In this document: in pieces, positions 8,035-32,000 of the stretch
Layout: every line of letters begins with the position of its first letter
How positions within the stretch are numbered: position 1 is the stretch's first letter
NCBI RefSeq assembly: GCF_000018785.1
Contig: NC_010163.1
Location: 240,001 to 272,000, forward strand
DNA length: 32,000 nt
From: Acholeplasma laidlawii PG-8A
Lineage (GTDB): Bacteria; Bacillota_I; Bacilli_A; Acholeplasmatales; Acholeplasmataceae
Direction of reading: 5' to 3'
Notes under the pieces: generated by a model
What the model saw: the letters and a program-made list of their open reading frames with translations, nothing else
The model's database searches: none
What the model was told of the DNA's origin: nothing
Translations under genes and position numbers: made by a program

Positions 8035-9048
8035 ATGAAGGAAAAAATAGATTCGATTGTTAAATCATTAAATGATAAAATCCATCCGGATTTAACATTA
8101 AATGATTTAGAAGCATTAAGAGTTGAGTATCTAGGAAAAAATGGTATTTTAACATCTCAAATGTCTCTAATTAGAACTTTACCAAATGAAGAAAAACCTA
8201 AGTTTGGTCAATGGATCAATGATGCAAAGGTTGCAATAGAACAAGTAATTAGTGATCAAAAAAACATATTACTTACAATAGCAATGAATGAACAATTAAA
8301 AAAAGAAACACTTGATGTTACAATGCCAGGGTTAAACTTTAAAAAAGGTAGCTTACACCCATTAACATTAGTGACTCAAGATTTAGAAGATTACTTTATT
8401 GGTTTAGGCTATAAAGTTGCTGAAGGTCCAGAACTAGAGTTAGATAAATATAACTTTGAAATGATGAATCTAGCAAGTGATCACCCTGCTAGAGAAATGC
8501 ATGATTCTTTTTATGTAACTCAAAATACATTACTAAGAACACATACATCTCCAATTCAAGCACGCTATATGGAAAAATCAAAGGGGCAACCAATCGCAAT
8601 TATTGCTCCAGGTAAAACCTATAGAAGAGATCCAGATGATCGTACGCACTCACACCAATTTATGCAATGTGAAGGTTTAGTCATTGATAAGGATGTGACA
8701 TTTGCACACCTTAAAGAAACGCTACTTGGTATGGCACGTCATATCTTTGGTGAAGAAAGAACGATTCGTTTAAGACCATCTTACTTCCCATTTACTGAAC
8801 CATCTGTTGAAGTCGATGTATCTTATGTGGACAGTGATGGTAAAACAGAGTGGATCGAAGTTTTAGGTGCTGGTATGGTACACCCAAATGTGTTAACTAT
8901 GGGTGGATATGATCCTAAAGTATACCGTGGGTTTGCTTTTGGGATTGGACTTGAACGTATTGCCATCTTAAAATATAAAATCGATGACATTCGTCAATTT
9001 TATACTAATGATCTACGCTTCTTAAATCAATTTAAAGGAGTCTTATAA
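8035..9048 (+). CDS. pheS: Phenylalanine--tRNA ligase alpha subunit
   Basis: 337-aa ORF with RBS aaggag. Class II aaRS motifs are present ([35 protein letters not shown]). Confidence 0.97.
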
Positions 9049-17461: not shown

Positions 17462-18801
17462 ATGTCAAAGTTAAAGGTTAGAATCGTAGATCCACATACG
17501 CTCATGCTTGAAGAAACTGGTCAAGTTGGAGACACGATAGACTTAAAATCTCTTCATTCTGTGGATGAAACTTTCATCATGGAACGTATTAAATCTCAAC
17601 AAGATGAAACTTATAATCGCTTACTACAAGGTGTTATCAAAGAAAACCACTCACAAATTCAATTAAAACTTAATGAACAATTAAGAAACTTTGAACTAGA
17701 AAAAAATAAACTGATACAGGATAAACGAGACTTGGAAGGTAGATTGTCTTCTCAAGTCGAGTTAAGTAAAAAGAATGAACAAATTCTTACAAATGCTCTT
17801 AAATCAGAATTTGAATTAGAACGTCAAAGATTGAATAATGAAATTCAAACAATTGAACTTAAAATTAAGCAAAATTTGGAAAATACCTATAAAGACCAAA
17901 TAAATCAAAAAGTTACTTTAATTCAATCTCTACAGGCTGAGAAAGAAAAAATGATTATAGAACATCAGCTACAATTAAACCAAAAACTAGCAAAATTAAA
18001 TGATGATATTTCTATAAAAGAAAAAGAAATTGAAGCATTAAAGAGAGAAAGAAGTTCAAGAAATATTAAAACTATAGGTGAGAATCTAGAAATCTGGTGG
18101 ATGAGCAGTTCAAAAATGTGTCTCTTTATGGATTTAAAACCTCTACATTTACTAAAGATAACTTGGTCATCAAAACAGAAGGTGATTCTAAAGGTACAAA
18201 AGGTGACTACATTTTTAAAGTATTTAACAATGAGTCCCATGATATCTTATTAACAAGTGCCATGATAGAAATGAAGAGTGAAGCACTAGAATCTGAAAAC
18301 AAAAAGAAAAACTCAGATCACTATAAGAAATTAGATGATGACAGAAATAAGAAAAAGCTAGAATATGCAATCTTAGTAAGTGAGCTAGAGTATAATTATG
18401 AATCAGATGCTCCTATATTTTCTGTACCAGGTTATGAAAAAATGTATGTTGTTAGACCTCATTTTTTCATCACCTTATTAGGTATTTTAGAATCTATCGG
18501 TATGAAGTATGCCGACATTATAACAAACAAAGAAATCCAAAAAATAGAGTTCCAAGAATCAGAAAAAATTCTTCAGGATTTTGAAAAGTTCAAAGAAGAC
18601 ATTATTGGAAACTCTATTAGACATATAACAACACAACTAGAGAACATAAAAACTAAAACAAATACCATTATTTCCAGTGTAGAAGCTATACAAGAAAGTG
18701 TTCGTGTTATTTTAGATTCCCACTTAAATACAGTGAGAAGTAAAATTGAAAATTATTCTATTAGACGTGTCGTTAAACATATTGATAAAATACAAGATTA
18801 A
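17462..18801 (+). pseudogene. DUF2130-family protein (N-terminal coiled coil plus C-terminal PD-(D/E)xK-like domain), interrupted by a 1-nt frameshift near 18098-18100
   Basis: Two overlapping ORFs (17462-18253 and 18097-18801) join into one protein of about 446 aa. The junction reads ..IGENLEIW|(C)DEQFKNV.. if one base is restored in tgg-tg_-gat-gag. The C-terminal part carries GDYIF...IEMKSE. Confidence 0.75.
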
Positions 18802-18935: not shown

Positions 18936-19538
18936 ATGAAGAAAATATTATTAATGATATTACTTTCATTTACACTGGTACTTGTAGCATGTACTGGTGA
19001 TAACGAAGGTGATAAGGATAATGAGCCAACAGCTCAAGAAATTTTTGATCGAAAATTCGAGTTTTTAGAAGCGAATAACTATGATCTAGAAATTAAAATT
19101 AGAGATCATCAAACACTATTAGATACAGTGGTTCAAATGTCTTTTGATGGTACTAAAATCAGATATGTAGATGCAGATTATATAGCATATTATGATAACT
19201 CTGGTGCTAAATCAAAGATGTATGTGAAACAAGGCGATGAATATGTTGTAAGTGAATCAAATTTCAAATCTTCAAGTTTATTATATTATGGATTTGAATT
19301 TGACCAGTTTGATGCTAATGGGGATACGATGTTTATTATGAAGTCTGACCAATACAGTACACTTGATTCATTTATTGGATTAGAAGATGGTGTGACAAGT
19401 ATTTCTAGTCTTCAAGTTAGAGTGGATGAAAATCATTTAACACAAGTAATATTTGATATCACAGTCGGTGAAACTGTATATTTAGTGACATTAACTATCT
19501 CAAATATCGGACAAGTTTCACTTGTCTTACCGGCATAA
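18936..19538 (+). CDS. Lipoprotein of unknown function
   Basis: 200-aa ORF with RBS agaggga. It has a signal peptide with the lipobox LVAC|TG (MKKILLMILLSFTLVLVAC). I recognise no domain. Confidence 0.75.
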   Translation: MKKILLMILLSFTLVLVACTGDNEGDKDNEPTAQEIFDRKFEFLEANNYDLEIKIRDHQTLLDTVVQMSFDGTKIRYVDADYIAYYDNSGAKSKMYVKQGDEYVVSESNFKSSSLLYYGFEFDQFDANGDTMFIMKSDQYSTLDSFIGLEDGVTSISSLQVRVDENHLTQVIFDITVGETVYLVTLTISNIGQVSLVLPA

Positions 19539-19554
19539 GTAGGGGGCTAACTAT

Positions 19555-21117
19555 ATGAAAAAAATATTAATCACAATATTTGTATCTATCATGCTTATTT
19601 TATCTTTTACACCAAGTACTCAAGCTCAAGAACTTTTCAGATTTGAGCACCAACTTAGTGAAAGAAGATATGTAGATGGTATCGAACACATTAAACGTGT
19701 AGGTACGATGACTTATGGTGAAGAAGTCACTTCACAACATTATAACTATTTAGGGGTTAACGTTAAAACAACTGATTATAATATCATAGCTAGTGATAAC
19801 TATAGACCTTATGAATGGGGTATGTCTAATTTAGTTGCACATATTGAAACTGCTAAACAAAGATTTCCTCATCTAGATTTTGTTGGTGGTGTTAATGGTG
19901 ACTTTTATGATATCAATAATACCGGCCGTGCATCTAATACACATATTGTAAATTTTGAAGTTAAGCACCGTGGACCAACGAATGGACGAAATGCAGTAGG
20001 GTTTACAGATGATGGCGATATGGTTTATGGCACCCCATCATTTTTAGGGCAACATTTAAACATATTAAATGAATATAAAGAACTTAAGATGAGATTAAAG
20101 ATTGATCGTATCAATCAATTACCTCAAAATGATTTAGAAATCGCTATTTTCCACCAAAACTATGCATCAGAAATTCCTGCTGATTTTCATAAAGTGATCA
20201 TTAACGCTAGTGATTTAAAATCAGATGCAAGTGGTAACATCAACTATTCTAAAGGGGTCTTAGATTCAAAAACAACTGATGCTCATACAATGGAAGAAAA
20301 GACTTTTGTTTTAGTGGGTAAGGCATTCCAAGATGATAACTTAATTACCAGTTCAGATACCATCTTAGTTCAAGAACTATTAGGAAATGGTTTTGAAAAT
20401 GTTAGAAACGCTATTGGAACCGGCCAATTACTCGTTAAAGATGGTGCTGTACAACATGCAGCATTTAAGAGTTTACCAAGTAATAATATGGCACACTTTA
20501 GACACCCTAGAACAGCTATCGGCCAAAAAGCCGATGGTACAGTATTCTTTATTGTAGTTGATGGTAGAGATGCTTTATCAGGTAAATACGGTGTTAAATA
20601 TAGCGAATTAGGTGAACTCATGAAAATGCATGGTGCTGTCACTGCCTTTAACTTAGATGGTGGTGGTTCATCAACCATGTTACTAAGAAATAGTGAAACA
20701 GGTGAGTATGAGGGATTAAACACATTCTCTGATGGTCATATGCGTTCAATTTCAAACGGTTTACTATTTGCAAGAGGAGACCTTGAACCTGTATTTGTAG
20801 AAATACCTTACCCAGATACAAGAACTCCATTTGAAGCACCAACTGGATTATTTATAGATTCTGAAGGTGTATTCCACTTTACTGGTAATAGTGAACATAT
20901 GGAATATGTGTTAAAAATCAATGGTAGAGAACAATATTTAACAAAAGAAACAATTTCTTTACTACTTGCACCTGGGCAACATGAAATTCAAGTTCGTGTT
21001 AAAGGTAATGCTGAATATTCTACCTCACCATTTAGTGAATCTTACACATACAATGTACACAAAAATGATGTAAAAATCATTCTTGATCTCATTAGAAACA
21101 TTGCTCAAGGTAATTAA
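19555..21117 (+). CDS. Secreted phosphodiester glycosidase family protein (NAGPA / DUF2233-like) with a C-terminal Fn3-like module
   Basis: 520-aa ORF with RBS aggggg. Sec signal peptide ends ..STQA|QE. Family motifs: GGVNGDFYD, HPRTAIGQKADGTVFFIVVDGRD and FNLDGGGSSTM. Confidence 0.85.
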   Translation: MKKILITIFVSIMLILSFTPSTQAQELFRFEHQLSERRYVDGIEHIKRVGTMTYGEEVTSQHYNYLGVNVKTTDYNIIASDNYRPYEWGMSNLVAHIETAKQRFPHLDFVGGVNGDFYDINNTGRASNTHIVNFEVKHRGPTNGRNAVGFTDDGDMVYGTPSFLGQHLNILNEYKELKMRLKIDRINQLPQNDLEIAIFHQNYASEIPADFHKVIINASDLKSDASGNINYSKGVLDSKTTDAHTMEEKTFVLVGKAFQDDNLITSSDTILVQELLGNGFENVRNAIGTGQLLVKDGAVQHAAFKSLPSNNMAHFRHPRTAIGQKADGTVFFIVVDGRDALSGKYGVKYSELGELMKMHGAVTAFNLDGGGSSTMLLRNSETGEYEGLNTFSDGHMRSISNGLLFARGDLEPVFVEIPYPDTRTPFEAPTGLFIDSEGVFHFTGNSEHMEYVLKINGREQYLTKETISLLLAPGQHEIQVRVKGNAEYSTSPFSESYTYNVHKNDVKIILDLIRNIAQGN

Positions 21118-21212
21118 TATTAGGCATAAAAACATATTAATATTTAAACCTATCTATGCTACACTTATGCAGTAAACTATTTAAAATTTTATCTTTAAAC
21201 ATATATGATGAA

Positions 21213-21226
21213 TGAAACCGTTAAAC
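21213..21226 (+). promoter_or_regulatory. cre-like 14-mer TGAAACCGTTAAAC upstream of murR
   Basis: 12/14 match to TGWNANCGNTNWCA. It is inverted relative to the site at 21283-21296, with 56 nt between them. Confidence 0.35.
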
Positions 21227-21282
21227 CTCACACAACCGCCTCTTAAATATCATTTAGAAGAAAAAAGTGAATGTGTGATTAA

Positions 21283-21296
21283 TAAAAACGGTTTCA
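21283..21296 (-). promoter_or_regulatory. cre-like 14-mer TGAAACCGTTTTTA (minus strand) over the -35 region of the murR promoter
   Basis: 13/14 match to the cre consensus. It ends 4 nt before the extended -10 at 21301-21309. Confidence 0.45.
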
Positions 21297-21300
21297 CTCA

Positions 21301-21309
21301 TGTTATAAT
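21301..21309 (+). promoter_or_regulatory. Extended -10 promoter (TGtTATAAT) of murR
   Basis: Perfect TGnTATAAT 35 nt upstream of the ATG at 21344. RBS tgaggtg at 21328-21334. Confidence 0.55.
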
Positions 21310-21343
21310 ATAGATGAGGAAGATAAATGAGGTGTAGTGATAA

Positions 21344-22189
21344 ATGAGTGTAATGTTAAACATGCTGAAAAATAAAGAAGCACTAAGTATGGCTGAACGT
21401 ATTGTTCTTGATTATTTAATTGAGAATAAGACGTTGCTCAAAGATTTTAGCGTGGAGAAAATTGCAGAGGCGGCTTACACATCCCCGGCATCGGTTGTAA
21501 GAATGTGTAAAAAGTTAGGTTATAATGGTTTTAAAGACTTTAAAATCGATTTTATTCTTGCAAACTCTAAAGTAGAGATTCCTGAAACAAGTGAATACAC
21601 TGACGTTATTTTAATTAAAGATCAAAACAATGGAAAAAAGGCAATTGAAAATAATATTCGAGCACTAGAAGAAACCATTAATCTATATGATGAAAAAACG
21701 TATACCAAAGCTGCATCCTTAATTATGAATGCTAGAAAAATCTTAATCTTTGGTAAAGGATCAAGTTTCTTAGTATGTAAAGACTTAGAAATGAAATTAA
21801 GACGTATTAATAAATTTTGTGTGGCACAAGGTGAATCACATGACCAATTTGTGGATGCATCCTTTATTAATAATAAAGACGTCGTAATTTTCATATCAAA
21901 CTCTGGTAAAACTAAAGAAATTATTTCCTCAGCATTACTTGCTAAAGAAAATAAAACACCAATTATTAGTATCACAAGAATTGGTTCAAGCATCCTTGCC
22001 GACATTTCGGATGTTGTGTTATACACTTCAGCATTAGAATCAGAATTTAGAAGTGCTGCGATGACTTCACGTATTTCTCAGATGTCCGTGGTGGATGCAC
22101 TTTATGCAAAATGTGCATACACAGATATAGATCGTTCGATTCAAGCACTTGAGACAACATATAGAACAATTAAAAAATTTAAAAGATAA
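21344..22189 (+). CDS. murR: MurR/RpiR-family transcriptional regulator (N-terminal HTH_6 plus C-terminal SIS sugar-phosphate-binding domain)
   Basis: 281-aa ORF. It has the HTH segment (SVEKIAEAAYTSPASVVRMCKKLGYNGFKDFK) and SIS motifs (IFGKGSSFLV, VVIFISNSGKTKE). The murR symbol is assigned by context with anmK only. Confidence 0.8.
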   Translation: MSVMLNMLKNKEALSMAERIVLDYLIENKTLLKDFSVEKIAEAAYTSPASVVRMCKKLGYNGFKDFKIDFILANSKVEIPETSEYTDVILIKDQNNGKKAIENNIRALEETINLYDEKTYTKAASLIMNARKILIFGKGSSFLVCKDLEMKLRRINKFCVAQGESHDQFVDASFINNKDVVIFISNSGKTKEIISSALLAKENKTPIISITRIGSSILADISDVVLYTSALESEFRSAAMTSRISQMSVVDALYAKCAYTDIDRSIQALETTYRTIKKFKR

Positions 22190-22197
22190 TTCAAATG

Positions 22198-22228
22198 AGG
22201 GCACCTATAAAATAGGTGCCCTTTTTTT
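22198..22228 (+). terminator. Strong rho-independent terminator after murR
   Basis: 11-bp stem agggcacctat(22198-22208)/ataggtgccct(22212-22222) followed by TTTTTT at 22223-22228. Confidence 0.85.
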
Positions 22229-22300
22229 GAAAACATTTTTCTAAGTGTGAAAGAATCTAACGAAATTAAGCGCTTACAAAAATATAGTAAGACTTTACTA

Positions 22301-22319
22301 TATAATGAAAACGTAACCA
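22301..22319 (+). promoter_or_regulatory. -10 box TATAAT (22301-22306) of the anmK operon, overlapped by the cre-like 14-mer TGAAAACGTAACCA (22306-22319)
   Basis: This is the only good -10 between the murR terminator and anmK. The 14-mer is a 12/14 match to the cre consensus and covers the predicted +1. Confidence 0.45.
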
Positions 22320-22335
22320 AAATACGAGGTGGCAT

Positions 22336-23484
22336 ATGAACCAATCGAAACTTGCTTGCGGTATTATGAGTGGTACATCATTAGATGGTATAGATGTTGC
22401 AATAGCAACAATTTCAGGTACTGGTCTTAATACAAAAATTGAACTCATCGTAGCAGAAACTTTTCCTTATCCCAAGGATATCTTAGAGAAAGTGAAACTG
22501 GCTATTGATAATGAACTAAGGGTAAGAGACGTATCGAGTCTCAATTTTGAACTTGGTAGACTTTATGCAGACTGTGTGATTAAGTTATGTAAAGACAACA
22601 AGCTAAGTCCTTCAAGTTTGAGTTTTATCGCATCGCATGGACAAACTGTCTACCACCAAGGTGCTACACAAGATGGAAGTAATCCAAACACACTTCAATT
22701 AGGTAGTGGATCTGTGATTGCAGGGTTAACCCAAACAACTGTCGTCTCTGACTTTAGAGTAGCAGATATGATTGCAGGTGGCCAAGGGGCACCCCTTGTT
22801 CCTTTTGTAGATTATATTTTACTATCAAATAAAGATAAAACACGTATCATTCAAAATATTGGAGGTATCTCTAATATTACAGTATTACCAAAGACTCAAC
22901 ATGAAAAAGATGTATACGCCTTTGATACAGGTCCAGGTAATATGATGATTAATTATGCGATGGAATATTTCTTTAATAAACCTTATGATGCATTCGGCGA
23001 GACTGCTAAAAAAGGAAACCTTATTAAGGCATTATATGATGAAATACTTCAACACCCATTCTTAAAACTACAACCACCTAAATCATGTGGTAGAGAAGAA
23101 TTTGGTGTGAGTTTCACAAAAGAGTTAATAAAAAGATATCATAATCATACAAGAGAAGACATCTTACATACACTCACCGTAGCGACAGCAGACACGATGG
23201 TTAAAGCTATAGAACAATTTGTTTTAAATAAACACGAAGTAGATGAACTGATTATTTCCGGTGGTGGTGTTCATAACACCTTTATGATGGATCAATTAAA
23301 GAAAAAACTACACCCAATACACGTCTTATCCACAGATGATATTGGTTTGTCAAGTGATTTTAAAGAGGCTCTAGCATTTATTGTTTTAGCCAATCAAACA
23401 ATGTATCAAGAACCGTCCAATCTACCTACAGCAACTGGTGCAAAAAAAGCTGTCGTACTTGGTAATGTTTCTTACTACAGATAA
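22336..23484 (+). CDS. anmK: Anhydro-N-acetylmuramic acid kinase (anhydro-sugar kinase family)
   Basis: 382-aa ORF with RBS gaggtgg. Motifs: GIMSGTSLDGIDVA near the N-terminus, NIGGISN, FDTGPGN, and GGGVHN near the C-terminus. Confidence 0.88.
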   Translation: MNQSKLACGIMSGTSLDGIDVAIATISGTGLNTKIELIVAETFPYPKDILEKVKLAIDNELRVRDVSSLNFELGRLYADCVIKLCKDNKLSPSSLSFIASHGQTVYHQGATQDGSNPNTLQLGSGSVIAGLTQTTVVSDFRVADMIAGGQGAPLVPFVDYILLSNKDKTRIIQNIGGISNITVLPKTQHEKDVYAFDTGPGNMMINYAMEYFFNKPYDAFGETAKKGNLIKALYDEILQHPFLKLQPPKSCGREEFGVSFTKELIKRYHNHTREDILHTLTVATADTMVKAIEQFVLNKHEVDELIISGGGVHNTFMMDQLKKKLHPIHVLSTDDIGLSSDFKEALAFIVLANQTMYQEPSNLPTATGAKKAVVLGNVSYYR

Positions 23485-23499
23485 AAAAAGGGGCTAAAC

Positions 23500-24798
23500 A
23501 TGAATAAAAAATTAAAATTAGTAATTATTGGTGCAGGATCAAGTTACACACCAGAATTATTTAAACACATCATATTAAACTATGAAGATTTAAAAGTAAC
23601 TGAGATTGCACTAGTTGATTTAGAGGATAATCAAAACAGATTAAACATTATAAATGATTTTGCACACAGAATGTTTAAGAAGCATAATATTTCAATGGCT
23701 ATTTCTCAATCAATAAATAGAAGAGAAGCTTTAGTTGATGCAGACTTTGTACTTATTCAAATTAGAGTGGGACGTATGGAAGCAAGGTACTTCGATGAAA
23801 CTGTTCCTGCACAATTTGAAATGTTAGGACATGAAGCAATTGGTATCGGAGGGATGTTTAATGCACTAAGAACTATCCCAGTAATCTATAAAATTATTGA
23901 AGATATTAAAGAACTTGCACCTAAGGCATGGGTTATTAATATTAGTAATCCTACTGGAATCATTAGTGAAGCAGTATTTAGATTTGCAGAGTTTGAACGC
24001 TACATGGGGTTATCAAGTAGTCCAAATCAAGCAACAAAAAGTATCATTGAAAAATTAGGTGCAAAACCTTCTGAAGTTGTGCCTTATTTTGCGGGATTAA
24101 GTGAATTATCATTTATCTCAAAAATATATCATAAGAGTAAAGATAAACTGCCTAAACTATTAGAAGAAGACTTTTGTCCATCTAAAAGATTTATGGCACC
24201 TGAAAACCTAAAACAGCTTAAATTATACCCGCATCCAAACTTAAAGGTCTATTATCAATATGATATTGCAGTACCTGAGTTTTTAGAACATATTAGAAAT
24301 AATCAGATACGTACAAATGAAGTTATTCAAATAGATGAAGAATTATTTAAACAATATAGTGACCCTTCAGTAGGTGAAGTACCTAAAGATATTGAGAAAA
24401 GATTAGGTCATGATTATGCAGAAACAGCGATCCAAATCATTGATTCTATGGTGAATAATAAAAAGAACTATCACGTCATTAATACAGTCAATCGTGGCCA
24501 TATTGTAGGAATTCCAGATGAAACATCTATAGAAATCACTTCACGTATTACAAATAAGGGTCCGATTCCGGTCCATATTGGTGAACTACCACTCCAAATA
24601 CGTGGTATCGTTCAACATCTAAAAGCTTATGAAGAATTATTATGTGATGCGATATATGAAAAGAATTTGAATAAAGCATTACTTGCATATCAGGTACATC
24701 CTTTATCTAAATCATTTATTACAACTAAACATGCATTTGATGCATTATATGAAAAACATAAAAACTTACTAACATACTATGGAGCGTACAACAAATGA
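23500..24798 (+). CDS. Glycoside hydrolase family 4-like NAD-binding protein, divergent (6-phospho-glycosidase LicH/CelF-like fold)
   Basis: 432-aa ORF with RBS aagggg. Rossmann motif KLVIIGAGSSYTPE and WVINISNPTG are present. It appears collinear with LicH as I recall that sequence, but GLCN becomes GLSS and GLNH becomes GLSE. Confidence 0.8.
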   Translation: MNKKLKLVIIGAGSSYTPELFKHIILNYEDLKVTEIALVDLEDNQNRLNIINDFAHRMFKKHNISMAISQSINRREALVDADFVLIQIRVGRMEARYFDETVPAQFEMLGHEAIGIGGMFNALRTIPVIYKIIEDIKELAPKAWVINISNPTGIISEAVFRFAEFERYMGLSSSPNQATKSIIEKLGAKPSEVVPYFAGLSELSFISKIYHKSKDKLPKLLEEDFCPSKRFMAPENLKQLKLYPHPNLKVYYQYDIAVPEFLEHIRNNQIRTNEVIQIDEELFKQYSDPSVGEVPKDIEKRLGHDYAETAIQIIDSMVNNKKNYHVINTVNRGHIVGIPDETSIEITSRITNKGPIPVHIGELPLQIRGIVQHLKAYEELLCDAIYEKNLNKALLAYQVHPLSKSFITTKHAFDALYEKHKNLLTYYGAYNK

Positions 24799-26009
24799 AA
24801 CTAAACTATTTTGGAACTGATAAACCACTGAATTACTTTAATACAGATAAACAAGTCGTGATACCTGAAAAATTTAACTTAAAACCATTTAGAGCATTTT
24901 GGATATCTAATGTCTTAAATATTGATTTACCAAATATGAAAGATCCATCTTATAAAGATAAAGTCATAGAAATGCTAGACACCGCTAAAGCATATAACAT
25001 GACAGCAATCTTTTTTCAAGTGCGTACAACAAATGATGCTTTCTATAAATCCAAGTTAAATCCATATTCTAGATTCTTAACTGGAAAAGAAGGGGAAGTA
25101 CCTTTATTTGATGTATTAGAGTTTGTTATTAAGGAAGCTAAAAATAGAAGTTTAGAAGTTCATGCTTGGTGTAATCCATATCGCGTAAGTATGAAAACTG
25201 ATATGACTAAGTCTGAGTATTTAAGTACACTGGATGATTTAAACTTTGCTAAAAGACATCCAGAGTTTGTGATAACTGATAAAAATGGTCAACTTATCTT
25301 AAACCCTGCAAAAGAAGAGGTGAAAACTTTCATTATCGATTCTATGCTAGAAATTGCAGACAACTATGATGTAGATGGTATTCACTTTGATGATTACTTC
25401 TATCCATATGCAGGTTTAAGCGATAGCGATAATGATGCATCTGATTTTGAACAAAGAACAGATAAATCACTAACTCTAGGAGATTTTAGAAGAAATCAAA
25501 TTACGGATGTTATAAGAAACTTAAACAAAGCATTAAAAGAAAAACATCCTAATTTAAGATTTGGAGTATCTCCATTTGGTATATGGAAAACTAAAAAAAG
25601 TGATGAATTAGGTTCTAATGTAGATCCACAATGCAGTCAATCTTATGATAATCAATATGCAGATAGCTATTTATGGATAAAAGAAGGCATAATTGACTAC
25701 ATCGTACCACAACTTTACTGGGATTTTGAGCATAAACTAGCACCATTTGCTGATTTGGCTTTATGGTGGGCAGAGGTATGTAAAGGTTCTAATGTGGATT
25801 TATATATTGGTCATGGTCCATATAGATATGGTGAAAAAGGTGGATATGAAAATCCATATGAAGTCGTAAATCAGCTTAAATTTGCTAATCAATTTGATAA
25901 TGTAGTTGGTAATGTATTCTTTACTTACAAGACATTTATCGATGAAACAAAACAACAACAAGGTATGCATCTTGTTAAAAAATTACTGAATGGAAGTGAG
26001 GATGTTTAA
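24795..26009 (+). CDS. GHL10 / DUF187 (YngK, Cwp19 catalytic-domain family) glycosyl-hydrolase-like protein, no signal peptide
   Basis: 404-aa ORF with an ATGA overlap with the GH4 gene. Motifs: FRAFW, HAWCNPYRV, DGIHFDDYFYP, FGVSPFGIW and VPQLYW. It visibly resembles the C-terminal domain of the next ORF across these motifs. Confidence 0.8.
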   Translation: MKLNYFGTDKPLNYFNTDKQVVIPEKFNLKPFRAFWISNVLNIDLPNMKDPSYKDKVIEMLDTAKAYNMTAIFFQVRTTNDAFYKSKLNPYSRFLTGKEGEVPLFDVLEFVIKEAKNRSLEVHAWCNPYRVSMKTDMTKSEYLSTLDDLNFAKRHPEFVITDKNGQLILNPAKEEVKTFIIDSMLEIADNYDVDGIHFDDYFYPYAGLSDSDNDASDFEQRTDKSLTLGDFRRNQITDVIRNLNKALKEKHPNLRFGVSPFGIWKTKKSDELGSNVDPQCSQSYDNQYADSYLWIKEGIIDYIVPQLYWDFEHKLAPFADLALWWAEVCKGSNVDLYIGHGPYRYGEKGGYENPYEVVNQLKFANQFDNVVGNVFFTYKTFIDETKQQQGMHLVKKLLNGSEDV

Positions 26010-29000
26010 TGAAGAAAGTAATTTTACTATTATTAACACTCGTATTAACATTAACTTTAATACCGACAAACGAAGCACATGCTTATCCAGAACCTGAGGT
26101 TCTAACTTCACCTGGTGAATTTAGAGCAACCTGGATAACCCATTTTATTGGTAGTATGCCTGCATACTCAACAGAACAAGATTTTAAAAGTGAAGTAAAC
26201 TCCATATTAAATAATATGGAAGCGAATAATTTAAATGTCGCAATCGTACATTTTAGAACACATAATAATGCACTTTATAAATCTGAAATTAACCCAGTTG
26301 CAAGTTGGTTTGCAACAGTAGACTTTGATGTCTTTGATCCAATGGCTTACTTTATTGAAGAAGCACACAAAAGAGGGATTGAATTTCATGCATGGTTAAA
26401 CCCTTACCGTGTACTTTCTACGTATCAAAGAGGTACCATTCCGGCAAGTAACCCACAAAGTAACCCTGCAAACCTTTTATCAAACAAGGAAGGTACTGCA
26501 CACATTTTAAACCCTGCATTACCAGTAGTACGTGAGCACGTTGTAAATACGATATTAGAAATTATTGAAAACTATAATGTGGACGCAATCCACTTTGATG
26601 ATTATTTCTACATGGAAATGAACAACGGTGGTATTTTAAATGACCCAGACCAAGCTTTATTTTTATCCAATCCATTAGGTCAACCAAATACTGTTGCTGG
26701 CAAAAGTAACTGGAGACGTACTCAAATTAACACTTTCATTGAACAGGCATCTCAAGCTATTAAAGACTTTAACCAAGCCAATAATCGCTATGTTCAGTTT
26801 GGGATATCTCCAACAGGTATTTATAGAAATGGTGATGGTGAAGTTACCTATGACCAAGACGGAAAACCTATTACAAATGGTTCGAAAACACAAGGTCAAG
26901 AACACTATGCATCTTATTTATTTGCTGATACAGTGCACTGGATTAGTGAAGGTTGGTTAGATTATATTCTTCCTCAAAGTTATTGGGCGAGTACCCATTC
27001 ACTTGCAGGATTTGATAAAGTCATGGGATGGTGGGATAAAGTTGTAAGATACTTAGATGTTAATCTATATTCAGGCATTGGACTTTACCTTGCAGATGCA
27101 GGCATTGCTTCAAACGTCTATTCATGGCGTGATAATCCAGAAGAATTTAGTAATCAAATGGAATTTTTACATTCTTTAGAATCAAATCAAGGATTTTCAA
27201 TTTATTCTTATAACATGATAAGAGATGCAGGTTTAAACTTTAATAGACCTTCACAAGCAAACCTATTTAATGCAAGAGATGATCATTTTCAAACAAAAAC
27301 TGTTTTACCACCATTAAAAAGTATGACACCGGTGCATCTGCCTGCTGTTTCAAATGTGATACATAATCCTGCAAATGGGTTATTAACGTTTGATGCACAG
27401 AGTGATGCTAAATTCTACTATATCTATAAATCCAGTAATCCATTAAACTATGTGGATGCTGAAATTATTGATGTTATACCAAATGATGGTCAAACTACAA
27501 TTACTTGGAATTCTAATGACACATCCACTACAAACAATTATGGTGTACGTTCTATTTCTTATACCAATCATTTAAGTCCTGCATTTGAAAGCAGTATAGA
27601 CGCACCATCGCATGAGTTTACTGGTACATTTGATGGTGTTAGATTTACATCACAAGTAGAACTAGAACTTAGTAGTGCGTATGATATCTTTTATAGTTTA
27701 GACGGTAATACATGGGAAAGTTATACAACGCCTATTCGTATTATCACAAATGGCCTAAATACAATCTACTATAAAGCAGTGGATAATTTAGACAATGAAT
27801 CTTTCGTAAAAGTTTTAAATTTCTATACGGAAATTAAAAATGAAGTACTACCAACAATTGCAATTAATGGTACACCATCTGGTACAAGTTACTTAGTAGG
27901 TACTAAAATTGAGATAACATCACCTGAGCATAATATTTGGGTCAAGATAAATCATGGCAGTCCAGGTACTTGGGTACCGTACGAGGGTCCTATCACTTTA
28001 ACATCAACAGGTAATTATGCAGTATTTGCTAAAACAATTGATGATGGTGGTATTGAATCTGCTGAAATTCAACAAAATTTACGTATTGTCTCAAGTTACA
28101 CTACACCAACACTTGAAATAGCAGGTGATGGTGTAGATCCAAACTATGACTGGTTAGAAATTACCATTAACTTCGATCAAAATGCACCCGAACCAAGATA
28201 TCGAATGAATGGAGGAGCTTGGATACAATATGTAGAACCGATTTTATTTGAACAAGTTGGTCATTATACTATGGAATATCGTAATGGACCACTAGAGCCA
28301 ATATATAGTAAAACGTTTAACATTGTAGAAGGTCCAGGAGAAGTTACTGTTGACATTGAAGGTAACTTAGTGGAAGGTACATATATTGGACCTGTCACAG
28401 TTACTTTAACGCCTAATCAATCAACAGATAAAATAGAATATAGATTATATAATGGTCAAAATTGGACTGCATGGTCTAATTACACATCACCAATTGAGAT
28501 TGCTACAACAGCAAATCATAGAGTGGCTTACCGAGTAACATCTCAATCAGGTATAGTTTCTGATGATGTAGAAATTAGAGTACCAGTATCTATTCCAATT
28601 ACCGAAGACAATCCATTCGTCATTAGAAATGGACAAAATGTCTATTACTATCAAACAAATACACCGGTTGCACTACCAACAACATACACAGAAAAAGATA
28701 AAGAAATACGTGCTGTTTGGGTTGCTACTGTAGCGAATATTGATATCACACAGTATGATAATGAAGCAAACTACAAGAACCAAATTATTAGTATACTAGA
28801 ACGTATGAAAGAACTTAAATTCAATACGATGTTCTTCCAAACAAGACCAATGAATGATTCATTCTATCCATCTGAATATGCACCAATGTCAAGATTCTTA
28901 TCTGGTACAGAAGGTGTAGGCGTAGGTTGGGATGTCTTAGAATTCTTAATTACTGAAGCACATGCACGTGGCATAGAAGTCCACGCATGGATGAATCCTT

Positions 29001-29995
29001 ACCGTGTAGCGAGTGGTTCTACAGCATCTATTGAAGATCAATTAGCACTACTACATGATTCAAACTTTGCAAAACAAAATCCATCATATGTAGTTCAAGA
29101 TAAGGGCGGTGCACTTATCTTAAATCCAGGGATACCTGAGGTTAGACAGTATTTATATAATATCGTCGATGAGATAATGGAAAACTATGCAATAGATGGT
29201 GTTCATTTTGATGATTACTTCTATAGTTATAGTGGAACAGAAGACAGTCAGGATGCAGATGCATTTCTAAATTACAATCCAAATAATTTATCACGTGATG
29301 ACTGGCGCCGTGAAAATGTTAACATGTTTGTGAAAACTATTTATGAACGTGTTGAAGCACATAATGAAGCAAATGATATGCATGTGAAGTTTGGTATTTC
29401 TCCATTTGGAATTTGGAGAAATAAAACTCAAGATGCTCTTGGTTCTAACTCGCAAGGTCTATCTAGCTATTCAGCTCAATATGCAGATTCTAGAAAATGG
29501 GTTAAAGAAGGCTGGTTACACTATATTATTCCTCAACTATACTGGCAATTTGATCACTCAACAGCACGTTTTGCAGATTTAGTGGACTGGTGGGTTGACG
29601 TGGTTAAAGATACCAATGTGGACTTAATTATTGGACAAGGTTTCTATAGATATGCAGAAAACTCCAATAATTGGACAAATGAATCTGAGTTCTTAGAACA
29701 ATTAAGATATATGTCACAATATGATGAAATCATTGGTAGTTCTATTTTCTCTTATAAAACGCTAAATTCTAATCATGCACTAGTTAGTGCAGCACTTGCT
29801 AGATTAGAAGGGCATTATTGGACTAAAAATGTAGAACATACATGGGAAACACATATGAATGATGAAGACCCGACACCAGAACCTACACCAGATACACCAG
29901 CAAACTTTGATATTGTTATATTTATATCAACAGTTTCATCATTTGTAGTATTATTGGGTGTTGTTATATTCATTGTTGTAAAGAAGAAGAAATAA
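26009..29995 (+). CDS. Large surface protein: signal peptide, GHL10 domain, Fn3-like module, four beta-sandwich repeats, second GHL10 domain, Pro/Thr linker, C-terminal TM anchor
   Basis: 1328-aa ORF with a TAATG overlap. Signal peptide ends ..NEAHA|YP. GHL10 motifs occur twice (HAWLNPYRV/DAIHFDDYFY and HAWMNPYRV/DGVHFDDYFY). The linker is DEDPTPEPTPDTP and the anchor is FDIVIFISTVSSFVVLLGVVIFIVVKKKK. Confidence 0.85.
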   Translation: MKKVILLLLTLVLTLTLIPTNEAHAYPEPEVLTSPGEFRATWITHFIGSMPAYSTEQDFKSEVNSILNNMEANNLNVAIVHFRTHNNALYKSEINPVASWFATVDFDVFDPMAYFIEEAHKRGIEFHAWLNPYRVLSTYQRGTIPASNPQSNPANLLSNKEGTAHILNPALPVVREHVVNTILEIIENYNVDAIHFDDYFYMEMNNGGILNDPDQALFLSNPLGQPNTVAGKSNWRRTQINTFIEQASQAIKDFNQANNRYVQFGISPTGIYRNGDGEVTYDQDGKPITNGSKTQGQEHYASYLFADTVHWISEGWLDYILPQSYWASTHSLAGFDKVMGWWDKVVRYLDVNLYSGIGLYLADAGIASNVYSWRDNPEEFSNQMEFLHSLESNQGFSIYSYNMIRDAGLNFNRPSQANLFNARDDHFQTKTVLPPLKSMTPVHLPAVSNVIHNPANGLLTFDAQSDAKFYYIYKSSNPLNYVDAEIIDVIPNDGQTTITWNSNDTSTTNNYGVRSISYTNHLSPAFESSIDAPSHEFTGTFDGVRFTSQVELELSSAYDIFYSLDGNTWESYTTPIRIITNGLNTIYYKAVDNLDNESFVKVLNFYTEIKNEVLPTIAINGTPSGTSYLVGTKIEITSPEHNIWVKINHGSPGTWVPYEGPITLTSTGNYAVFAKTIDDGGIESAEIQQNLRIVSSYTTPTLEIAGDGVDPNYDWLEITINFDQNAPEPRYRMNGGAWIQYVEPILFEQVGHYTMEYRNGPLEPIYSKTFNIVEGPGEVTVDIEGNLVEGTYIGPVTVTLTPNQSTDKIEYRLYNGQNWTAWSNYTSPIEIATTANHRVAYRVTSQSGIVSDDVEIRVPVSIPITEDNPFVIRNGQNVYYYQTNTPVALPTTYTEKDKEIRAVWVATVANIDITQYDNEANYKNQIISILERMKELKFNTMFFQTRPMNDSFYPSEYAPMSRFLSGTEGVGVGWDVLEFLITEAHARGIEVHAWMNPYRVASGSTASIEDQLALLHDSNFAKQNPSYVVQDKGGALILNPGIPEVRQYLYNIVDEIMENYAIDGVHFDDYFYSYSGTEDSQDADAFLNYNPNNLSRDDWRRENVNMFVKTIYERVEAHNEANDMHVKFGISPFGIWRNKTQDALGSNSQGLSSYSAQYADSRKWVKEGWLHYIIPQLYWQFDHSTARFADLVDWWVDVVKDTNVDLIIGQGFYRYAENSNNWTNESEFLEQLRYMSQYDEIIGSSIFSYKTLNSNHALVSAALARLEGHYWTKNVEHTWETHMNDEDPTPEPTPDTPANFDIVIFISTVSSFVVLLGVVIFIVVKKKK
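27611..28582 (+). repeat. Four tandem protein-level repeats of about 65-85 aa (chitobiase/hexosaminidase C-terminal or Fn3-associated-like beta-sandwich) inside the 1328-aa ORF
   Basis: Recurring pattern hydrophobic-x-L/I-x...(I/W)xY..(N)GG/G.W..Y..PI......G.....A.D..G..S across aa ~535-605, 615-692, 700-772 and 780-858. The repeats are diverged at the DNA level. Confidence 0.6.
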
Positions 29996-31038
29996 TGGAT
30001 AGAATTAAATCGTTTTTACAAAAAGGTGTGGATGAAGCGCGTTTTCCTGGCGCACATTATGCACTAATTACAAAAGATAATTTGATCACTGATTTTGTTG
30101 GGTATAAACAACTATACCCAACAAAAGAAGTGCTAAGTGGCGATGAAATATATGACGTTGCATCTCTTACAAAAGTCATATCAACAACAACGCTTATATT
30201 AAAGTTGGTGGATGATAACTTACTTTCTTTAGATACGAGGTTGCAATCAATCTTGGGTAGGTACAAACATCCACATACAACCATAAAAGAATTGCTCATT
30301 CACGCTTCAGGGTTACCTGCTGATGTACCAAAAATTAGAACGGTAAAATCTAAAGAAGCAGTAATGGATATTATTTTTAGTATGGATCTAATTTATGAAC
30401 CAAATACTAAAGTTGTATACTCTGATGTTGGTTTTATCTTACTTGGAAAAGTGATAGAAAAAATGTATGGCATGCCAATTGATGAAGCTGCCCAAAAATA
30501 TATCTTTAATCCTTTAGGTATGTTTGATTCAGGGTATAGACCCGAAGTAGATAGAGTAGCACCAACAGAAGATCATGACGATGATTTTTCAAAAGGACTA
30601 CTTAAAGGTAAAGTGCATGATGAAAAATCCTATTTATTAGAGGGGTTAGCGGGTCATGCAGGTTTATTTTCTACGGTGTATGACATTGGTTTATTTATTC
30701 AAAGTATATTAAATGATAAATTTGTGTTAAGTAAGGATATGACAGATAGACTATTCTTACCTCAAATTACCGATGACTCCTTAGGTTATAAGGTAACTAG
30801 AACACTTGGTTACTTAAAGCCGTATGAAGATAGTTTTGCAGGATCAAAAAGTGATTTTGATAACACAATCGGGCACACTGGTTTTACTGGGTGTCATATG
30901 TTTATTGATAAGAAAAATGACATTGGATTTGTATTATTATCTAATGCTGTTCATCCAAAACGTAGTTTAAATAGAATTATCGGTTTAAGAAATGAATTAG
31001 GCAATATAATTTATGAGATGAAAGTAGAGAAAAAATGA
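29995..31038 (+). CDS. Serine hydrolase of the beta-lactamase/PBP-like family (AmiE/YbbE-like), no signal peptide
   Basis: 347-aa ORF with a TAATG overlap. It has the SxxK motif ASLTK (Ser57, nt 30163-30165), YSD in place of YxN, and GHTGFTG (H-T-G box). Confidence 0.8.
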   Translation: MDRIKSFLQKGVDEARFPGAHYALITKDNLITDFVGYKQLYPTKEVLSGDEIYDVASLTKVISTTTLILKLVDDNLLSLDTRLQSILGRYKHPHTTIKELLIHASGLPADVPKIRTVKSKEAVMDIIFSMDLIYEPNTKVVYSDVGFILLGKVIEKMYGMPIDEAAQKYIFNPLGMFDSGYRPEVDRVAPTEDHDDDFSKGLLKGKVHDEKSYLLEGLAGHAGLFSTVYDIGLFIQSILNDKFVLSKDMTDRLFLPQITDDSLGYKVTRTLGYLKPYEDSFAGSKSDFDNTIGHTGFTGCHMFIDKKNDIGFVLLSNAVHPKRSLNRIIGLRNELGNIIYEMKVEKK

Positions 31039-32000
31039 AGAAAATATTTGCAATATTTAGTTTAGTATTGGTTAGTTTGATTACAGCATGTACTGCAATA
31101 GAAAAACCTGATGAAATTACATTAAGTTTAAGTAGTGGTCCAATCCAATTAGAAGTTGGTAAGACTCATCAGTTATCTATTACTACAAATGATACTTTAG
31201 GTTATGATATTAGTTCATCTAATCATGAAGTAGTAACCGTATCAAATACAGGGTTAGTTACTGCCTTAAAAGAAGGTACTTCAGTAGTTACTGTAACATC
31301 TAAGACTAATGAAGAAGTATCTAAAAGTGTCAACATCCATGTAACTAAAACATATAACTTAGTGATTGAAGAGCCATCCACATATTTATGGGCTGGACAA
31401 ACACTTCAATTAAGTTTTGAAACATCTGGTGAGGAAGTTACATTTAAATCAGACAATGAAGCTGTTGCAACAGTGGATAATAACGGTTTAGTTACGGCAG
31501 TAAGTCCAGGTAACTTTAAAATTACAATGACATTAGCATCAGATATTTCTGTTAAAGCAGAAATTAGTTTAGTAGTGTATGATGAAACATCAACCATTTT
31601 ACTAGAAGGTGACTCTAAGTTAAATGTGGGTCAAACAACAAAGTTAAGTGCCATTTTAGGTCCTGAAACTGCAGCACCTGCTTTAGCATGGTCATCTAGT
31701 GATGAGTTCGTTGCTACAGTAGATGATGAAGGTACAATCACCGCACATAAATCTGGTGCTGTTACAATTACAGCAACTTCATTAACCTCTACAGAGGTGA
31801 GTGCAACGCATTCGATTCTAATTGTTAATGAACTAGTAGTCGATGGTGAAGCAAAAACTGGTGATAAAGTCGTCGTTGAGGATTTAGAATTTGAGTTTGG
31901 AACGACTTTATTTAATACTTTAGAAGCAGCACTTGATACTGCAACTGATGGCGCGCATATTTATTTAAAAAATCTTGAACTTTTAACACTTACTATACTA
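31035..32000 (+). CDS. Lipoprotein with three Big_2 (bacterial Ig-like group 2) domains, 5' partial (continues beyond the window)
   Basis: ATGA overlap with the upstream gene. The frame is open for all 322 codons to the window end by manual translation. Lipobox LITAC (MKKIFAIFSLVLVSLITAC). Three repeats of the G.T.QL....(S)SN..VATVD..G.VTA...G...ITA pattern. Confidence 0.8.
   Translation, partial: MKKIFAIFSLVLVSLITACTAIEKPDEITLSLSSGPIQLEVGKTHQLSITTNDTLGYDISSSNHEVVTVSNTGLVTALKEGTSVVTVTSKTNEEVSKSVNIHVTKTYNLVIEEPSTYLWAGQTLQLSFETSGEEVTFKSDNEAVATVDNNGLVTAVSPGNFKITMTLASDISVKAEISLVVYDETSTILLEGDSKLNVGQTTKLSAILGPETAAPALAWSSSDEFVATVDDEGTITAHKSGAVTITATSLTSTEVSATHSILIVNELVVDGEAKTGDKVVVEDLEFEFGTTLFNTLEAALDTATDGAHIYLKNLELLTLTIL

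Follow-up and report, generated by a model that had tools for sequence, protein, structure and literature searches.

Hydrolysis by transient oxidation with nicotinamide adenine dinucleotide (NAD+) is known best from glycoside hydrolase family 4 (GH4), in which a Mn2+ ion is bound by a Cys and a His and a Tyr serves as the base. The role of the Tyr as catalytic base, deprotonating C2, was reportedly described by Yip et al. 2004 and Rajan et al. 2004, and its position is taken here to be 241 in BglT of Thermotoga maritima, 258 in ChbF of Escherichia coli, and 265 in GlvA. In BglT the Mn2+ ligands are Cys162 and His192 (PMC10755693). In ChbF nine residues form the -1 subsite (C172, N150, H203, Y258, T113, E112, R96, R282, and N173) and a loop at positions 231-240 is a proposed contributor to the +1 subsite; the enzyme cleaves GlcNAc6P-GlcNAc (GlcNAc, N-acetylglucosamine; 6P, 6-phosphate) only after ChbG has removed the N-acetyl group (PMC13197890). 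Two other families of NAD+-dependent glycosidases, GH109 and GH188, work without a metal, with GH109 acting on N-acetylgalactosamine (PMC10755693). Here, a GH4 protein lacking both canonical metal ligands and the Tyr is described from the wall-less Mollicute Acholeplasma laidlawii PG-8A. Its gene (the query) lies directly downstream of anmK, which encodes anhydro-N-acetylmuramic acid kinase (AnmK), within a window of 32,000 nucleotides (nt), this being the whole stretch of DNA analysed (contig NC_010163.1, positions 240,001 to 272,000; all coordinates of the query locus are relative to the window and are collected in Table 1).

By fold and descent the query is clearly a member of GH4, yet it just as clearly lacks the catalytic hallmarks of the family, namely the Cys/His metal ligands, the Tyr base, and the complete nine-residue -1 subsite. 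Both GH4 domains were matched far above their gathering scores (Glyco_hydro_4, PF02056, 2.3e-47; Glyco_hydro_4C, PF11975, 3.3e-35), the best solved relatives by phmmer were the Geobacillus structures 5C3M/1S6Y (2e-88) and BglT (1UP6, 1e-55), and the nearest relatives by sequence and tree, including the top PDB and database matches, are 6-phospho-beta-glucosidases. An AlphaFold2 model built on 72 homologues (predicted local distance difference test score, 95.1) combined a Rossmann N-terminal domain like that of lactate dehydrogenase with the GH4 C-terminal fold and superposed on 1S6Y/5C3M with Foldseek template modelling (TM) scores of 0.92-0.95; as modelled, the GH4 fold is intact. The GxGS motif for NAD+ and the ribose-binding Asp of the family are both present in the sequence, and Gly11, Ser14, Asp40, Glu112, and Glu345 are invariant among the 72 homologues. 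Asp40 is presumably the residue that binds the NAD ribose, equivalent to Asp41 of GlvA. The GGAS and GAAS variants of the Rossmann motif were considered as a sign of lost NAD+ binding and discarded, as canonical sequences carry them too.

HMMER alignments to 5C3M, 1S6Y, and 1UP6 place GLSSSP of the query opposite GLCNVP and AGLSEL opposite AGLNH(M/L), such that the Cys is replaced by Ser172 (codon TCA, nt 24013-24015) and the His by Glu202, and counting residues along the 1UP6 chain identifies these two columns as Cys162 and His192 of BglT. The two substitutions had been proposed in a preliminary description of this DNA, as had the reading GHEAIGIGG where GH4 has GQETxGxGG, and all three are borne out. 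A nearby Cys/His pair that would restore the canonical site was sought and not found in the query, where the only Cys residues (226 and 382) are both outside the subsite motifs; the query is without the canonical metal ligands. The same description noted that a PROSITE-type GH4 signature fails at its terminal Cys. The pattern does fail at Ser172, but it also fails at Ser156 and Met169 and so not at the terminal Cys alone. It matches ChbF and MelA of E. coli, and since only 106 of 388 collected homologues fit it, its failure by itself is weak evidence.

A third loss had been overlooked. Where canonical proteins have PxPY the query reads PHPN, with Asn247 (24238-24240) in place of the Tyr base. 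The subsite was mapped by aligning the E. coli ChbF sequence with the query and ~270 homologues, and the nine positions read R96, E112, A113, N150, S172, S173, E202, N247, and R271 in the query. Five of the nine are thus changed (T113A, C172S, N173S, H203E, and Y258N in ChbF numbering) and four are kept (R96, E112, N150, and R271), both Arg residues among them. From the alignment, the changed residues would surround C2, C3, and the metal, while the two Arg, the Glu, and the Asn would anchor the other end of the sugar. Arg96 probably contacts a 6-phosphate on the glycone, because it is absent from the non-phospho GH4 enzyme MelA; the GH4 literature is part of the basis for taking the Arg residues as probable phosphate binders. 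Two His residues specific to the clade of the query, His111 and His245, adjoin subsite residues and might make up a different site; His334 was also examined as a specific residue and dropped, being frequent in canonical sequences as well.

An artefact or a pseudogene can be set aside as the source of this state. A. laidlawii NCTC10116 (LS483439.1) carries the gene at 100% identity, the codons of Ser172 and Glu202 are each two bases from any Cys or His codon and hence neither is a single-base error, the ratio of non-synonymous to synonymous substitution rates (dN/dS) against orthologues is ~0.12-0.25, indicating purifying selection, and the variant state is kept in at least 10 clusters at 90% identity.

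A GH4 gene between anmK and the gene for a cytoplasmic GHL10 protein was also found in A. oculi, A. hippikon, and many metagenome contigs assigned to Acholeplasma or 'Tenericutes' (order anmK-GH4-GHL10 in L001-L013, L015, L020-L023, and L025). The same slot is occupied in 13 of 13 non-redundant loci with a variant site, and every variant-site GH4 that groups with the query and has a known context is directly 3' of anmK, in agreement with the adjacency to anmK pointed out earlier. Residue states differ among these proteins (positions 111/172/203/258 in ChbF numbering): H/S/E/N in the A. laidlawii group, H/S/D/N in A. oculi and P0012, H/C/D/N in P0011 and P0013, H/C/E/A in P0015, H/C/H/D in A. 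hippikon, Q/S/Q/Y in the P0100 group, and N-or-S/S/P/D in the P0119 and L025 group. His111 occurs in all 15 clade members versus 0 of 212 canonical sequences, His245 in 13 of 15 (canonical sequences carry Ser, Asn, or Cys), an acidic residue (Glu or Asp) at 202 in 14 of 15, and Asn247 in 12 of 15. Among 150 representatives of the nearest clusters at 50% identity, ~130 retain both Cys and His, the complete Q/C/H/Y set being present in 114.

In a neighbour-joining tree the proteins with His111 form one clade nested in canonical Mollicute 6-phospho-beta-glucosidases, with the states ordered from C/H to C/D or C/E, then S/D, then S/E, such that the His is lost first and the Cys last; given so simple a method, the separate branching of the S/Q/Y proteins could be artefactual. 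The preliminary description had raised the question of whether Ser/Glu variants form a clade co-occurring with anmK. The variants do lie beside anmK, but canonical-site GH4 genes are linked to anmK too, and Ser/Glu is, by the tree, a late derived state of one sublineage and not what defines the link. The gene remains full length across species down to ~50% identity and the C-terminal domain is near-invariant within the clade. The fixation of new residues under purifying selection points to a site that has been rebuilt rather than one in decay. Elsewhere in GH4, P0270 (L018, 8001-9365) and its relatives P0148 and P0168, from Clostridium/Sarcina, have also lost the Cys, His, and Tyr (D/S/N/N or D/S/N/K); these form a small separate clade, and the catalytic triad has therefore been lost more than once in the family. 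The idea that loss of Cys and His is always tied to murein was abandoned, as the P0148/P0270 clade has no sugar genes nearby.

Most members of the anmK-linked GH4 family have the full Cys/His/Tyr site, and the two types of locus differ in what adjoins the GH4 gene: a kinase or phosphotransferase system (PTS) gene is present in 5 of 5 canonical anmK-linked loci versus 0 of 13 variant loci, a correlation that covers these 18 loci. In L020 the order is PIG-L ... NAGPA, the beta and alpha subunits of electron transfer flavoprotein (ETF), a D-lactate-dehydrogenase-like protein dependent on flavin adenine dinucleotide (FAD), RpiR, and AnmK, followed by a NagK-like kinase (BcrAD_BadFG; NCBIfam NagK_SO3507 at 1e-15) next to a canonical GH4 (Q/C/N/H/Y; 9024-11314), then GHL10, GHL10x2, a beta-lactamase-like protein, and an amidase. 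The same order of kinase then GH4 occurs in L021, L022, and L023, where the GH4 residues are R/Q/E/T/N/C/N/H/Y/R, and at a non-Mollicute locus (L055, 912-3867) the genes for RpiR, PTS-EIIC, a canonical GH4, and AnmK adjoin one for a secreted GHL10. When MurQ, NagZ, and MurP of E. coli were searched by tblastn against ~20 Mollicute loci, no homologue turned up within 10 kb, E. coli NagZ gave no match in the window either, and the query has no Pfam match to GH3. NagZ-like genes do lie near several distant GHL10 loci from outside the Mollicutes, and MurQ is encoded at one such locus. Most Mollicute loci encode a GlcD-type FAD-dependent D-lactate dehydrogenase, some with ETF. Overall, the module of kinase or PTS, GH4, and AnmK is apparently an undescribed alternative to NagZ. 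A preprint on an 'unusual MurNAc route' in mycobacteria (MurNAc, N-acetylmuramic acid; PMC13041923) proved not to be relevant.

By analogy, the anmK-linked GH4 proteins would most likely be 6-phospho-beta-hexosaminidases that split 6'-phosphorylated GlcNAc-anhMurNAc (anhMurNAc, 1,6-anhydroMurNAc), a step equivalent to that of NagZ, because the grouping of kinase or PTS, optional deacetylase, GH4, and AnmK parallels that of PTS, ChbG, and ChbF. The preliminary description had offered the query as a stand-in for a missing NagZ that cleaves GlcNAc-beta-1,4-(anhydro)MurNAc; the anmK-linked GH4 family, its pairing with a kinase or PTS, and the lack of NagZ within 10 kb speak for such a role, but plain GlcNAc-anhMurNAc is not the substrate that the analogy implies, which would be 6-phosphorylated on the glycone and possibly de-N-acetylated.

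From the gene content, secreted GHL10 lytic transglycosylases and amidases would cut foreign murein to GlcNAc-1,6-anhydroMurNAc units, which would be imported, possibly with the binding protein of an ATP-binding cassette (ABC) transporter encoded downstream. The non-reducing GlcNAc would be 6-phosphorylated and, in some lineages, stripped of its N-acetyl group by a PIG-L enzyme; GH4 would then split the beta-1,4 bond of the disaccharide and AnmK would turn the released anhMurNAc into MurNAc-6P. In the A. laidlawii sublineage, the operon kinase and deacetylase would have been lost and the GH4 pocket rebuilt around C1-C3 of the glycone, with the NAD+ site and the half formed by Arg96, Arg271, Glu112, and Asn150 retained. 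ChbF depends on ChbG, and so the region around C2 would have to be altered in a GH4 that has no deacetylase as partner. NAD+-dependent oxidation and elimination might still cleave a beta-hexosaminide, now on an N-acetylated glycone unable to chelate the canonical metal, with His111, His245, and Glu202 assuming acid/base or metal-holding roles. For the query, whose substrate, catalytic competence, and new-residue roles we infer, the preferred reading is thus a NAD+-dependent beta-hexosaminidase adapted to an N-acetylated glycone, to which a probability of roughly 0.42 is given. A bolder form, a long shot by comparison, would be a new centre (His111/His245/Glu202, with Asn247 for Tyr) that handles an N-acetylated peptidoglycan sugar directly and cleaves GlcNAc(6P)-beta-1,4-anhMurNAc without the canonical Mn2+ and Tyr or de-N-acetylation or, boldest of all, acts in the manner of MurQ with the help of NAD+, freeing D-lactate from MurNAc-6P.

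Several findings weigh against the beta-hexosaminidase reading. The Tyr base is missing from the query. Neither the A. laidlawii operon nor the rest of the window encodes a GlcNAc 6-OH kinase, though the two Arg residues that probably bind phosphate are kept, and MurNAc-6P would fit them equally well as a ligand. Literature searches found nothing on GH4 in peptidoglycan recycling, on the A. laidlawii locus or clade, on MurQ or AnmK of Acholeplasma, or on the residues of Gan4C. Seven combinations at positions 172/203/258 occur in identical synteny (C/H/D, C/E/A, C/D/N, S/D/N, S/E/N, S/Q/Y, and S/P/D), a variety at key positions that looks like relaxed constraint on catalysis, and the P0119/L025 group is also without Asn150, Arg96, and Arg282 (Arg271 of the query). 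In Haploplasma modicum (L014, 9989-12410) only 46 bp separate anmK from GHL10 and there is no GH4 gene. Finally, in an A. laidlawii draft assembly (GCA_001729655.1; L016, 3506-4804) the otherwise identical GH4 gene is broken by two 1-nt indels, one base missing from the poly-A run at codon 3 and one gained at nt 781, that scramble residues 3-260; these are either the mark of a strain-specific pseudogene or homopolymer sequencing errors.

The diversity of residues in a single slot, the loss of most of the -1 subsite in the P0119 group, and the absence of the gene from H. modicum would be accommodated by a pseudoenzyme that has lost GH4 catalysis and acts as a sensor or as a sugar-phosphate- or NAD-binding partner, for instance of AnmK or of the coupled GHL10 protein, with which the GH4 gene shares overlapping stop and start codons. 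Further in favour of such a role, all three hallmark catalytic residues are replaced, the loss of the ligands coincides with the loss of the partner kinase and deacetylase, and the unrelated Clostridium/Sarcina clade without Cys and His lies in a context free of sugar genes. Set against strong purifying selection on a gene kept at full length, the strict retention of the NAD+ motif and Asp40, and the conservation of His111, His245, the acidic residue at 202, and Asn247, which fits a working site, a pseudoenzyme is considered unlikely.

An enzyme directed at MurNAc-6P, either a MurQ-like etherase releasing D-lactate or a 6-phospho-N-acetylmuramidase, would bind the product of AnmK in the former 6-phospho-glucose pocket and act without oxidation of a C3-OH. 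GH4 chemistry is incompatible with a MurNAc glycone, as the preliminary description stated, the C3 oxygen being etherified (PMC8054146), and the loss of Tyr and metal would be sensible for a substrate not open to oxidation at C3. AnmK is the only enzyme of the operon that makes a phosphosugar, and the end of the pocket that faces the phosphate and C4-C6 is kept (Arg96, Arg271, Glu112, and Asn150; Arg96 is absent in MelA). Four of the five changes (T113A, C172S, N173S, and Y258N) introduce smaller side chains and the fifth would exchange a cationic metal for a carboxylate, which may leave room for 2-acetamido and 3-O-lactyl groups. Though no murQ was found in the Mollicute neighbourhoods searched and the GlcD-type D-lactate dehydrogenase in most loci implies that a step releasing D-lactate belongs to the pathway, canonical-site loci also have the dehydrogenase and lack murQ, such that the absence is not specific to the variants, and murQ may sit elsewhere in the genome. 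The S/Q/Y subgroup retains the Tyr base, implying a glycone with a free 3-OH, H. modicum has anmK without GH4, and ether cleavage or muramidase chemistry is without precedent in the GH4 fold. This alternative is accordingly judged distinctly improbable.

Least probable is that a divalent cation is now coordinated by harder ligands (Ser172, and Glu202 together with His111, His245, or both) in an otherwise ordinary NAD+-dependent 6-phospho-beta-glycosidase, an extension of the earlier suggestion of a different metal held by hard O-ligands that draws some support from Glu or Asp, good ligands for Mn2+ or Mg2+, at the 203 position in nearly all clade members, from the two clade-specific His residues beside the subsite, from the retained phosphate anchors and NAD+ site, and from A. 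hippikon, which retains both Cys and His, but in which the canonical E1cB (elimination via the conjugate base) step would have no Tyr as base, making the same chemistry less likely, five of nine subsite residues differ, a possible +1 loop is seven residues shorter, position 203 offers no residue able to act as a ligand in the S/Q and S/P subgroups, and a kinase that could supply a 6-phospho-glycoside is absent from the operon.

The operon runs in the order anmK-GH4-cytoplasmic GHL10-secreted GHL10x2-beta-lactamase-like-Big2/amidase (Table 1). AnmK shares 95% identity with its counterpart in A. laidlawii strain 8195, and the GH4 start codon is 15 nt past the end of anmK, preceded by the ribosome-binding site AGGGG. 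The beta-lactamase-fold protein presumably resembles AmiE of Bacillus subtilis, a MurNAc-peptide amidase. In L015, the genes downstream encode an 812-residue protein without annotation and two large ABC-type solute-binding proteins. One GHL10 enzyme, Cwp19, acts as a lytic transglycosylase and leaves 1,6-anhydroMurNAc ends (PMC6016235), which explains the link of GHL10 to AnmK. Together, the locus from 18936 to 32000 and beyond (as seen in L015) suggests the scavenging of other bacteria's cell walls by a wall-less Mollicute.

Table 1. Genes, signals, and GH4 residues of the A. laidlawii locus, in window coordinates
Feature	Position	Strand	Remarks
Secreted NAGPA (phosphodiester glycosidase) domain protein	19555..21117	+	Conserved locus member, beside a lipoprotein
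MurR/RpiR-type regulator (HTH_6 + SIS)	21344..22189	+	Domain matches
Strong terminator	22197-22223		Directly after the MurR/RpiR gene
Promoter-like site	22227-22256		Ahead of anmK
anmK (anhydro-N-acetylmuramic acid kinase)	22336..23484	+	Pfam 3.6e-104; NCBIfam equivalog 591 bits, cutoff 435
GH4-family open reading frame (ORF), apparently rebuilt catalytic centre	23500..24798	+	432 residues, without internal stop
Rossmann NAD+-binding motif IIGAGSSYTPE	23527..23559	+	Gly11, Ser14 invariant, 72 homologues
Asp40, invariant	23617..23619	+	72-homologue alignment
Arg96, kept -1-subsite residue	23785..23787	+	Alignment with ChbF
His111-Glu112-Ala113 for canonical Gln-Glu-Thr	23830..23838	+	Glu112 kept, Thr to Ala
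Asn150 of NPxG motif, kept -1-subsite residue	23947..23949	+	Alignment with ChbF
Ser172-Ser173 in place of Cys-Asn	24013..24018	+	Cys is metal ligand, Asn is subsite residue
Glu202 in place of metal-ligand His (BglT His192, ChbF His203)	24103..24105	+	Codon GAA
Region FCPSKRFMAPEN	24172..24207	+	7-residue deletion versus canonical relatives, loop ChbF 231-240
His245-Pro-Asn247	24232..24240	+	Asn247 for base Tyr (BglT Tyr241, ChbF Tyr258)
Arg271 (ChbF Arg282), kept -1-subsite residue	24310..24312	+	Alignment with ChbF
Cytoplasmic GHL10 protein, without signal peptide	24795..26009	+	Start overlaps GH4 stop (ATGA, 4 nt)
Secreted, C-terminally membrane-anchored double-GHL10 protein, 1328 residues	26009..29995	+	Domain matches
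Cytoplasmic beta-lactamase-fold protein, PBP4B/YfeW-like	29995..31038	+	Domain matches
Big_2-repeat lipoprotein, 5' part	31035..32000	+	Full gene in L015: 1009 residues, Amidase_2 end

Several further features of these loci were noted. The GHL10 family is known as an extracellular lytic transglycosylase, yet the copy at 24795-26009 is cytoplasmic; searches with it returned >120 clusters at 57-100% identity from Acholeplasmataceae, Izimaplasma, and related metagenome-assembled genomes (MAGs), a conservation that extends far beyond that of the adjoining GH4. The gap between NAGPA and rpiR (21118-21343) is 226 bp in A. laidlawii and holds a GlcD-type FAD-dependent D-lactate-dehydrogenase-like gene in A. 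oculi, A. hippikon, and several MAGs, with ETF alpha and beta genes ahead of it in some loci. The H. modicum operon is also without the D-lactate dehydrogenase and has a 301-residue ORF without annotation upstream of rpiR. Upstream in L006 (1328-4133), a locus of the S/Q/Y type, are a weakly ROK-like 471-residue gene, a BshB-like PIG-L de-N-acetylase, and a GDSL esterase, candidates for a kinase, a deacetylase, and an O-acetyl esterase that act on murein fragments. Within the window, a DUF2130 gene is split between overlapping ORFs in different frames (17462-18253 and 18097-18801); it is a single frame of 444 residues in A. laidlawii strain 8195 and L001, and the split reflects either a frameshift or faulty assembly of the type-strain sequence.

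For GH4 enzymology, the clade provides a natural lineage under purifying selection in which the metal ligands and the Tyr base have been replaced step by step, and with canonical orthologues in the same slot of sister taxa it amounts to an evolutionary series bearing on which parts of the mechanism are dispensable and on specificity for the 2-acetamido group. If active, the query cannot work as every studied relative does, and a new centre in the GH4 scaffold would, if true, represent a mechanism not known in the family. For peptidoglycan recycling, a kinase or PTS combined with a GH4 6-phospho-beta-glycosidase would replace NagZ upstream of AnmK, a route apparently not described before. For the ecology of the Mollicutes, wall-less Acholeplasma and their relatives hold a complete, conserved locus directed against the walls of other bacteria.

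Of the described systems, ChbF of E. coli and Salmonella, the monoacetylchitobiose-6-phosphate hydrolase, is in the same beta-specific subgroup of GH4 and collinear with the query, sharing the NAD+ motif, Arg96, Glu112, Asn150, and Arg282; the presumed substrate of the query is likewise a beta-1,4-linked hexosamine disaccharide, and the ancestral operon pairs phosphorylation and a deacetylase with GH4 as the chitobiose system pairs PTS and ChbG with ChbF. The query differs in replacing Cys172, Asn173, His203, Tyr258, and Thr113 and in its shorter 231-240 loop, and the A. laidlawii operon has no PTS, kinase, or deacetylase genes and a peptidoglycan rather than a chitin context. BglT (1UP6) and Gan4C of Geobacillus (5C3M, 1S6Y) are the best matches in sequence and fold (TM 0.89-0.94 for BglT), but Cys162, His192, and Tyr241 of BglT are Ser, Glu, and Asn in the query. 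NagZ, of GH3, holds the same proposed position in the pathway, the release of GlcNAc from GlcNAc-anhMurNAc ahead of AnmK, with an unrelated fold and mechanism and no sequence similarity to the query; it takes the unphosphorylated disaccharide and no cofactor, whereas in the GH4 route 6-phosphorylation apparently has to come first, as far as the canonical operons are concerned. MurQ and MupG act on the phosphosugar that AnmK produces, and murQ is normally under a MurR/RpiR-type repressor like the one encoded at 21344-22189, but the folds of MurQ (SIS) and MupG (DUF871 TIM barrel) are unrelated to that of the query, and while no MurQ homologue was found in the Mollicute loci, MupG was not searched for. 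GH109 and GH188 oxidise C3 transiently with bound NAD+ and without a metal, and so set a precedent for a metal-less GH4 (PMC10755693), though they belong to a family of the GFO/IDH/MocA type, use a catalytic His and Tyr, and have a C-terminal domain that is not homologous to that of GH4.

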